NCBI GenBank assembly: GCA_965215265.1
Contig: OZ244048.1
Coordinates: forward strand, 448,001-512,000
DNA from: Candidatus Poribacteria bacterium
GTDB taxonomy: Bacteria > Poribacteria > WGA-4E > WGA-3G
Direction of reading: 5' to 3'
Length of the DNA stretch: 64,000 nucleotides
Shown piece after piece: positions 62,329-62,904 of this stretch. Position 1 is the stretch's first letter. Every line of letters starts with the position of its first letter. The notes under the pieces were generated by a model. That model saw nothing but the letters and a program-made list of their open reading frames with translations, was not told the origin of the DNA and made no database searches. The translations under genes were made by a program, and so were the position numbers.

Positions 62329-62904
62329 ATGCCTACAGGCACAATTAAGACATTACGGGACAATCATGGTTTCATAGACTCAGAAGACGGCGGTAAGGGT
62401 GTCTACTTCCATGCTAAAGCACTTAAAAACGCCAAATTTGATCAACTTGAGGAGGGGCAGAAGGTTGCATCCTATAACGTCACGCAAAGTTCTAAGGGGC
62501 CCACCGCAAGTAACGTTGTCGTAGCAGACATTGACTCTCGCGCGGATGTTAAGATTGAGGATGTTATCGAGGATGTTATCGAGAAAGGAGGCGAACCGCT
62601 TGTTTCTGCCTCTGAGGCTTTGGGACGAAAACTGAAAAATAGTGGACTTAAAACCTCGCAAATCAGAAAAATTTACAGTGCTGTCAAGAAGATACAAATG
62701 AGCAACGAGTTTCGCAGAAACGAGTTGATTATGCTCAAACCTAAATTGGCTTATGCAGCAGCACGAAACCGAGAAGTCACTGCACTAAAGGATGCCTTAA
62801 CCGAAGCCATCAATCAGGTCGATAATCCGGATAAATTCAAAAACTTCGTCGACTTTTTTGAAGCAACCCTCGCCTACCACAAGGCAGCCGGCGGACAAGA
62901 CTAA
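62329..62904 (+). CDS. csm2: Csm2 (Cas11) small subunit fused to an N-terminal cold-shock domain
   Basis: ATG after AAGGAG; CSD: [27 protein letters not shown]; Csm2: [32 protein letters not shown]. Confidence 0.92.

Follow-up and report, generated by a model that had tools for sequence, protein, structure and literature searches.

A cold-shock domain fused to the Csm2 subunit of a type III-A CRISPR effector in Poribacteria

A two-domain gene and its product

In solved Csm complexes, several copies of Csm2 (Cas11), the small subunit of type III-A CRISPR effectors, line the side that faces the target RNA and form the minor filament. The cold-shock domain (CSD), known from the bacterial cold-shock proteins (Csps), binds single-stranded RNA and DNA with low specificity. 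The stretch of DNA analysed here, referred to below as the window, comprises 64,000 nucleotides (448001-512000) of the single-contig, 4.83-Mb genome of a Candidatus Poribacteria bacterium (GCA_965215265.1, contig OZ244048.1), and it contains a gene in which these two elements are joined. The CSD-csm2 fusion gene (62329-62904 in window numbering, + strand, stop codon included) encodes a protein of 191 amino acids, P0001, with the CSD at its N-terminus, followed by a short acidic linker and then by Csm2.

The initial annotation had described an uninterrupted 191-codon open reading frame (ORF) with its own ribosome-binding site, and comparison with orthologues bears this out. The ribosome-binding region (62311-62328, + strand) holds aaggag at positions -11 to -6 of ATG 62329, and the Shine-Dalgarno sequence and its spacing before this ATG are identical in all 16 fused orthologues, the window's gene included. 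The longest open frame around the gene (62191-62904, 237 amino acids) also offers a start at ATG 62191, which was rejected because the extension is not conserved, whereas the Shine-Dalgarno sequence before 62329 is present in every orthologue; stops break the upstream frame in orthologues, and in two of them (L008 and L011) a stop directly precedes the ATG of the CSD. Translation starting downstream of the CSD, a concern raised in the initial annotation, was examined as a conserved feature and rejected as well, since no in-frame ATG, GTG or TTG with a Shine-Dalgarno sequence in or after the linker is conserved across the 16 fused orthologues. The sole in-frame internal candidate in the window's gene is a TTG at codon 98, inside the Csm2 domain. 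The stretch AAAGGAGG at 62584-62591 falls in the codons for a conserved E-K-G-G, and the window offers no start codon suitably spaced from it; its G-G codons are conserved in unfused relatives too, for protein reasons. Given a Shine-Dalgarno sequence at the ATG of the CSD in 16 of 16 orthologues and no conserved internal start, the fusion should be the only form in which the Csm2 domain is made.

Residues 3-65 (62335-62523, + strand) match the Pfam CSD model PF00313 over positions 2-65 of 66, with an E value of 4.6e-15 and a score of 55.7 bits (cut-off 27). In an AlphaFold2 model of the fusion protein computed from 103 family members (mean predicted local distance difference test, pLDDT, of 90), these residues form a five-stranded barrel with strands at 4-10, 13-17, 25-28, 45-54 and 57-65. 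Foldseek aligns this barrel with CspE, CspB and CspA at template-modelling (TM) scores of 0.75-0.80, normalised to the target, and at 31-40% identity; CspA, CspB and CspE are also the sequence matches of this part in the PDB. By its PF00313 score and the five-stranded fold of the model, of the oligonucleotide/oligosaccharide-binding (OB) type, the N-terminal region belongs to the CSD superfamily, as the initial annotation had proposed, and the motifs that it had picked out (HGFI, VYFH, EGQKV and KGP.A.NV) can all be seen in an alignment to Escherichia coli CspA (1mjc). The consensus of the fused family keeps RNP1, Phe37, EGQ.V and KGP.A.NV.

The fusion CSD is related to the free Csp equivalogs (CspA, CspE, CspD) but, on these scores, is not a member of them: all NCBIfam Csp families fall below their equivalog cut-offs, the best of them, CspE, at 51.6 bits against 120, and the domain is part of a 191-residue protein where free Csps have about 70 residues. 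The best NCBIfam matches among CSD families are the antiterminator-type Csps (CspE/CspA). With CspA, CspB and CspE (1mjc, 1csp, 3i2z, 3pf4), which act as RNA chaperones and antiterminators, the fusion CSD has in common the PF00313 fold and, at the level of the family consensus though not throughout the window's own protein, RNP1; it differs from CspA in a Thr/Leu pair in place of the first-strand Trp/Phe, in a two-residue deletion after strand 1, and in a shortened RNP2.

The barrel is followed by a flexible acidic linker of about residues 66-75 (62524-62553, + strand), with pLDDT below 50 at residues 69-74. The rest of the protein (residues 76-191, 62554-62901, + strand) is the Csm2 (Cas11) helical domain. 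PF03750 (Csm2_III-A) matches residues 89-189 over model positions 5-114 of 115 (E value 1.3e-28, 100.5 bits, cut-off 24.8), and the NCBIfam Csm2 model TIGR01870 gives 68.1 bits (cut-off 30.6). The two-domain reading of the initial annotation, with a complete Csm2 after the CSD, is accordingly upheld by hidden Markov models (HMMs) for both domains, each above cut-off. In the AlphaFold2 model, this part forms seven helices spanning residues 76-186, mostly with pLDDT above 90. Foldseek similarity of the helical part to the Csm2 chains 6o7h_B, 6ifk_C, 9no4_C and 6ae1_A is moderate (target-normalised TM scores of 0.43-0.59), and sequence matches to Csm2 in the PDB include 5an6_A (E value 9.8e-11), 6mur_B and 6nud_A. 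The protein thus belongs to Csm2/Cas11 by every sequence test and every model-based fold test that was run. Like the canonical Csm2 proteins (6ifn_C/6ifk_C, 6o7h_B/6mur_B, 5an6_A), it matches the same HMMs over nearly their full length, has the helical fold, and is encoded between cas10 and csm3; unlike them, it begins with a cold-shock barrel some 65 residues long and a linker, and no PDB Csm2 chain matched the CSD part.

The junction between the domains is also supported by contigs from sequencing runs. Single contigs span 62100-63100 with no stop in four of four sequencing runs from four studies, some of which may be the window's own source, and these contigs cross 62520-62580, where the initial annotation had advised looking for a break, without a stop or misassembly. 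Three of the run contigs, again possibly including the source of the window, are identical to it or differ by one letter. The fourth (run X7) shows five listed substitutions and lacks 12 bases at 62557, with the frame preserved. This site is the beginning of a 12-base tandem duplication, two copies of GAGGATGTTATC (62557-62580, + strand), which encodes EDVI-EDVI (residues 77-84) at the boundary between the linker and the first Csm2 helix. One unit of the duplication is missing in run X7 and in cluster P0002 (187 amino acids, 97% identity), so that the X7 deletion represents the loss of one tandem unit and corresponds to P0002.

The surrounding operon and genome

The genes around the fusion gene agree with the type III-A assignment of the initial annotation: cas6, cas10 (with its HD and GGDD motifs), csm3, csm4 and csm5 all matched family models. 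The cas6 gene (58851-59603, + strand; PF01881, PF21350, and TIGR01877 at 146 bits) lies in a frame that opens at 58800, with its likely start at ATG 58851. It is followed by cas10/csm1 (59918-62218, + strand), which scores 552 bits with TIGR02578, matches the Pfam HD, Csm1_B and palm2 models, and carries the HD motif at residue 14 and GGDD at residue 590. Downstream of the fusion gene, csm3, for the Cas7 backbone subunit (62915-63742, + strand; TIGR02582, 220.8 bits), starts 10 bases past the csm2 stop. The 5' part of csm4 (63751-64000, + strand; TIGR01903, and Csm4_C PF17953) runs to the end of the window and continues beyond it, giving a protein of 346 amino acids (L083 752-1792). Beyond the window end lie csm5 (TIGR01899, 135.8 bits) and then a gene for a CARF-type protein of 391 amino acids, which matches TIGR02221 at 134.7 bits and the DxTHG motif model, with no family match in its C-terminal half. 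Judged by its gene content, the type III-A (Csm) system is complete and apparently active.

No CRISPR repeats occur inside the 64-kb window; an array, with at least 86 identical repeats of 30 bases, lies 13-19 kb downstream of window position 63000. A same-strand type I-B set (cas8b1, cas7, cas5 and cas3), with cas4 and cas1, is found downstream of the III-A genes (L083 5490-18939, about 516.5-530 kb), and an ORF of 140 amino acids (L083 4567-4989, + strand) without a Pfam or NCBIfam match sits between the CARF-type gene and cas8b1. With a single cas6 upstream of cas10, and the array and the I-B module downstream, the III-A and I-B effectors probably share CRISPR RNAs (crRNAs) and adaptation genes. 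Only one Csm2 match is present in the 4.83-Mb genome, and it is the CSD fusion; any Csm complex that is made must therefore use CSD-Csm2.

Elsewhere in this genome, no free Csp of about 70 residues was found with PF00313. The only other CSD forms the N-terminus of a 311-residue protein (L084 1821-2756, - strand; about 4477821-4478756), which has a long low-complexity middle and a C-terminus with a weak, sub-threshold Hfq-related match (E value 0.0046); most genomes belonging to the host's family-level group have ORFs of about 310-345 amino acids with an N-terminal CSD like that of this protein. Its CSD is 39% identical to that of the fusion, no closer than E. coli CspA (39%), and so gives no pointer to the origin of the fusion CSD. 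Upstream of cas6, the window also holds three tandem paralogues on the + strand (52885-53718, 53833-54687 and 54817-55647; 277, 284 and 276 amino acids) with signal-peptide-like N-termini and with near-identical middle and C-terminal parts.

Distribution, selection and module exchange

The two-domain architecture is a recurrent one within a single bacterial lineage. In a database of 5.8 billion proteins, 476 match at an E value of up to 1e-3; among the best 120 of these, 102 contain both Pfam domains (178-216 amino acids, 52-97% identical), and the other 18 are Csm2 only (109-164 amino acids), up to 82% identical over the Csm2 part. The only name given to any fused cluster is 'CRISPR-associated protein Csm2'. 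Among the 150 best matches in a set of 1.84 billion representatives clustered at 50%, CSD and Csm2 occur together only in P0102, P0122 and the fragment P0131, a search whose scope took in neither fusions longer than 335 amino acids nor free CSDs akin to that of the fusion.

At the level of genomes, where the initial annotation had suggested looking for the same architecture, the full-length fusion is found in 16 of 176 Poribacteria species genomes (the host included), all in one family-level group, with one in genus g1, 11 in g5 and four in g6. Two further genomes have partial fusions: in G073 the gene is split across contig ends, and in G125 (C132, 16979-17410, - strand) residues 1-151 match inside a 408-residue open frame, which may mean that the C-terminal part is arranged differently or that the assembly is at fault. 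The 15 full-length fused loci from species-representative genomes are all titled Poribacteria save one 'uncultured bacterium', and the fused frame is intact in all of them. The gene's position is as constant as its frame: its immediate neighbours are cas10 on the upstream side and csm3 on the downstream side, in all 15 fused loci and all 28 unfused ones alike. In the fused locus L011, a transposase-like ORF of 439 amino acids (8489-9808, - strand) is located between cas10 and CSD-csm2, which are about 1.5 kb apart.

Both domains appear constrained. Across the window's gene and its 15 orthologues, the median pairwise ratio of nonsynonymous to synonymous substitution rates (dN/dS, NG86 method) is 0.165 for the CSD, 0.39 for residues 66-83 and 0.09 for Csm2, calculated from the 96, 103 and 87 usable pairs of 120 after dropping pairs with dS of 0 or of at least 3. 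Mean pairwise amino-acid identities run in parallel (67%, 51% and 78%), with residues 66-83 the least conserved part of the protein. By these comparisons, the CSD is under purifying selection.

The unfused Csm2 proteins of Poribacteria (L017-L031, P0104-P0121) share the operon and the junction with the fused ones, and they reach 82% identity over the Csm2 domain. Where the fusion has its CSD, these have a basic tail. In 23 of 23 unfused loci (counted over Poribacteria-titled loci, and with L032, L035, L040, L042, L044 and L045 omitted), the first 15-34 residues of Csm2 (median 27) form a tail in which Arg, Gln, Asn and Gly abound, with a net charge of +2 to +6 (median +5). The tail ends where the CSD linker joins the first Csm2 helix, just before the ..VIE.GG helix. 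Every member of the Csm2 clade that was examined thus bears one module or the other, 16 being fused and all 23 of the rest tailed. Unfused forms are also present in genera g5 and g6. No separate CSD gene was detected near unfused loci (none of 64, L017-L080, by tblastn over flanks of up to 10 kb).

In a tree of the Csm2 domain (45 rows, 111 columns; the partial L016 and the more distant L046-L080 omitted), fused and tailed proteins interleave. The best tree needs five module changes, the well-supported branches force at least two, and an approximately unbiased (AU) test rejects a single fused clade with a p value of 0.0005. The exchange is seen most directly in the fused L011 and the tailed L028, which are sisters with support of 100/94: their DNA is 81-93% identical over the Csm2 domain and 59-78% over csm3, and it is unalignable upstream of about codon 77. 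On this phylogenetic evidence, at least two exchanges of one N-terminal module for the other have taken place. All fused CSDs begin alike, lack the same two residues after strand 1 and carry the Thr/Leu replacements, a pattern that fits a single capture of the CSD and, as we infer, its later spread through recombination.

Other long forms of Csm2 exist in the databases. Six longer Csm2 proteins (P0136, P0205, P0212, P0184, P0246 and P0262) have N-terminal helical extensions of 60-140 residues, P0205 with two Csm2-like stretches, and no CSD was found in any of the six. Appendages on Csm2 may be more widespread than the CSD form, these others being helical where that of the fusion is a cold-shock barrel.

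The initial annotation had ventured, without being able to verify it, that a CSD-Csm2 fusion might be new. As far as characterisation goes, this holds: no description of a CSD-Csm2 or CSD-Cas11 fusion was found in the open full-text literature, although supplementary tables of CRISPR surveys may list the architecture, and the words 'cold', 'CSD' and 'Csm2' do not occur in a survey of type III accessory genes (PMC6546367). The architecture itself is not unique to this genome, as the 102 of the best 120 clusters and the 16 of 176 genomes make clear. In sequence terms, the fusion is a conserved, lineage-restricted variant of a well-known subunit that is apparently undescribed.

Possible roles of the fused domain

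That the tail and the CSD sit at the same junction, and have replaced each other at least twice, is most simply read as the two being alternative versions of one job, that of a non-specific nucleic-acid handle. Such reasoning leads to the reading that we hold to be somewhat better than evenly probable, namely that the CSDs are nucleic-acid capture or chaperone modules on the Cas11 filament. Because Csm2 is present in several copies per Csm complex, each complex would display about two to three CSDs, each tethered by roughly 10 residues of linker. With low specificity, they would bind single-stranded nucleic acid, and could catch the flanks of a target transcript or keep the transcript unfolded. 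Capture or unfolding would then speed or stabilise pairing with the crRNA, and altered pairing could in turn tune RNA cleavage, the activity of the Cas10 HD nuclease, and cyclic oligoadenylate (cOA) signalling to the adjacent CARF protein. The initial annotation had likewise envisaged several RNA-chaperone domains displayed along the crRNA:target duplex; the identities that it assigned prove right, and the mechanism, as an inference from them, is plausible. The alternation of CSD and tail is the main support for a handle function, and the purifying selection on the CSD also speaks in its favour, as do the canonical CSD residues retained in the family consensus and the precedent, taken up below, of CSD-like folds fused to other defence proteins.

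Several features of the CSD weigh against this reading. In Csps, the aromatic residues of the first strand (Trp/Phe) and of RNP2 serve in base stacking. In the alignment to 1mjc, Trp11 and Phe12 of CspA correspond to Thr8 and Leu9, the former being the replacement of the usual Trp of KWF that the initial annotation had pointed out, and Thr and Leu are nearly invariant at these positions in the fused family. The F-V-H-F of the CspA RNP2 aligns with Y-F-H-A in the window's protein and with H-F-x-x in the family, a motif reduced there to V-H/Y-F. The RNP1 consensus of the family, K-G-F-G-F-I, is as in CspA; the window's own protein reads N-H-G-F-I, with His13 replacing the first Phe. In all, about half of the canonical aromatic binding residues of the CSD have been replaced. 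With the first-strand pair, half of RNP2 and, in the window's protein, the first Phe of RNP1 gone, base stacking of the CspA kind is not assured, and the divergent first strand and RNP2 count against a simple CspA-like chaperone. Charge is a further point: the CSD itself is roughly neutral (net -3 to +3) and the linker after it is acidic (-2 to -6), whereas the tails are strongly basic, so that the two modules need not be equivalent. Moreover, most of the Poribacteria that have a Csm2 of this clade dispense with the CSD, a Csm2-only form being present in 32 of the 176 genomes as against the 16 with the fusion.

These same replacements lend some weight to a second explanation, in which the barrel has been repurposed and no longer binds nucleic acid. 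It would instead be a protein-protein or regulatory module that, for example, positions neighbouring subunits, brings in the CARF effector or an RNase of the host, or joins with the acidic linker to autoinhibit Csm2 until target binds. Nearly invariant Thr8 and Leu9 in place of the stacking residues are what would be expected of a new conserved surface, and both the acidity of the linker and the purifying selection on the CSD are compatible with such a role. However, the family consensus retains RNP1 along with several other canonical positions, and a module that alternates in position with basic tails is more easily reconciled with a nucleic-acid role; we therefore regard repurposing as rather unlikely, if the strongest of the competing accounts.

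A third explanation keeps the binding function and changes its ligand. As handles for single-stranded DNA, the CSDs would keep the non-template strand of the transcription bubble close to the complex and pass it on to the Cas10 HD nuclease, or else retain the complex at a transcribing target. Cas10 does retain its N-terminal HD motif and its HD-domain matches, the CSD fold is intact in the AlphaFold2 model and by Foldseek, and the best family matches of the domain are to Csps of the antiterminator type. Against this stand the loss of aromatic residues, which applies equally to a DNA ligand, and the nature of the alternative module, since an Arg/Gly-rich tail is more typical of RNA binding; a DNA-holding role seems unlikely on this evidence.

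It is less probable still that the CSD is a dispensable ornament, peculiar to the lineage and of small consequence for immunity, that recombination among Poribacteria csm loci carries along. Fused and unfused forms do co-exist within g5 (11 fused) and g6 (four fused), the modules have been swapped (as seen in the tree, the AU test, and the L011/L028 pair), and canonical Csm2 functions without any appendage, as in the 123-residue chain 5an6_A. A CSD dN/dS of 0.165 over 16 orthologues and 15 of 15 intact frames nonetheless argue against neutrality, as does the fact that no clade member examined lacks a module of one kind or the other. Finally, an artefact of assembly or start choice, or a second, short Csm2 made from an internal start in the manner documented for Cas11 of types I-B, I-C and I-D (PMC11899642), is very improbable: the AAAGGAGG stretch at 62584-62591 in the E-K-G-G codons might invite the latter, but no in-frame ATG, GTG or TTG follows it at a usable distance and no internal start is conserved, and the contigs of all four runs bridge the gene while all 15 orthologous loci are intact.

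Comparison with known systems sets the capture-module reading in context. The type I-B, I-C and I-D Cas11 subunits are also encoded inside a larger frame, but they are released as separate proteins (PMC11899642); since the fusion has no conserved internal start, its Csm2 should instead bring the CSD into the complex. The nearest functional analogy found in the accessible literature is the type I CoCoNuT systems, in which CSD-like OB folds are fused to CnuB/McrB and RNA targeting is predicted (PMC11090510). There, as in the CSD-Csm2 fusion, a cold-shock-type domain is placed at the N-terminus of a core defence protein, and the system to which that protein belongs has RNA as its predicted target. 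The two are otherwise unrelated, CoCoNuT being built on a McrBC-type GTPase and having no guide RNA, and that paper (PMC11090510) makes no mention of Csm2 or Cas11. A CSD is likewise found in an anti-phage context in the cold-shock effector of retron Se72 (NF038236), of which the fusion, at 26 bits against a cut-off of 82, is not a member.

A broader form of the capture-module reading can be put forward tentatively, and we consider it possible rather than probable. In a clade of type III-A systems centred on Poribacteria, the Cas11 filament may be a scaffold for interchangeable nucleic-acid modules, either a cold-shock barrel or an RGG-like tail, which are shuffled by recombination at a fixed junction. 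Such modules would capture or unfold structured or protein-coated viral transcripts, or would hold a displaced DNA strand, and would thereby determine how sensitive type III signalling is and how long it lasts.

Type III effectors must reach complementary sites in transcripts that are folded or covered by ribosomes or other proteins, and the route by which they gain access has been little studied. The small subunit has so far been viewed as a passive helical spacer lining the target strand. A conserved and selected CSD fusion, and its alternation with Arg-rich tails, suggest that some systems give this filament an active function in capture or melting, and the swapping of the CSD with basic tails gives a new hint, open to test, of what the domain does. 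Were the scaffold reading true, target recognition in CRISPR effectors would gain a new and tunable layer that might be transferred to type III diagnostics; there the CSD, if its function is confirmed, would be a natural add-on for better RNA detection on structured targets. For the uncultivated, sponge-associated bacteria in which it is found, the fusion illustrates modular recombination within cas genes.

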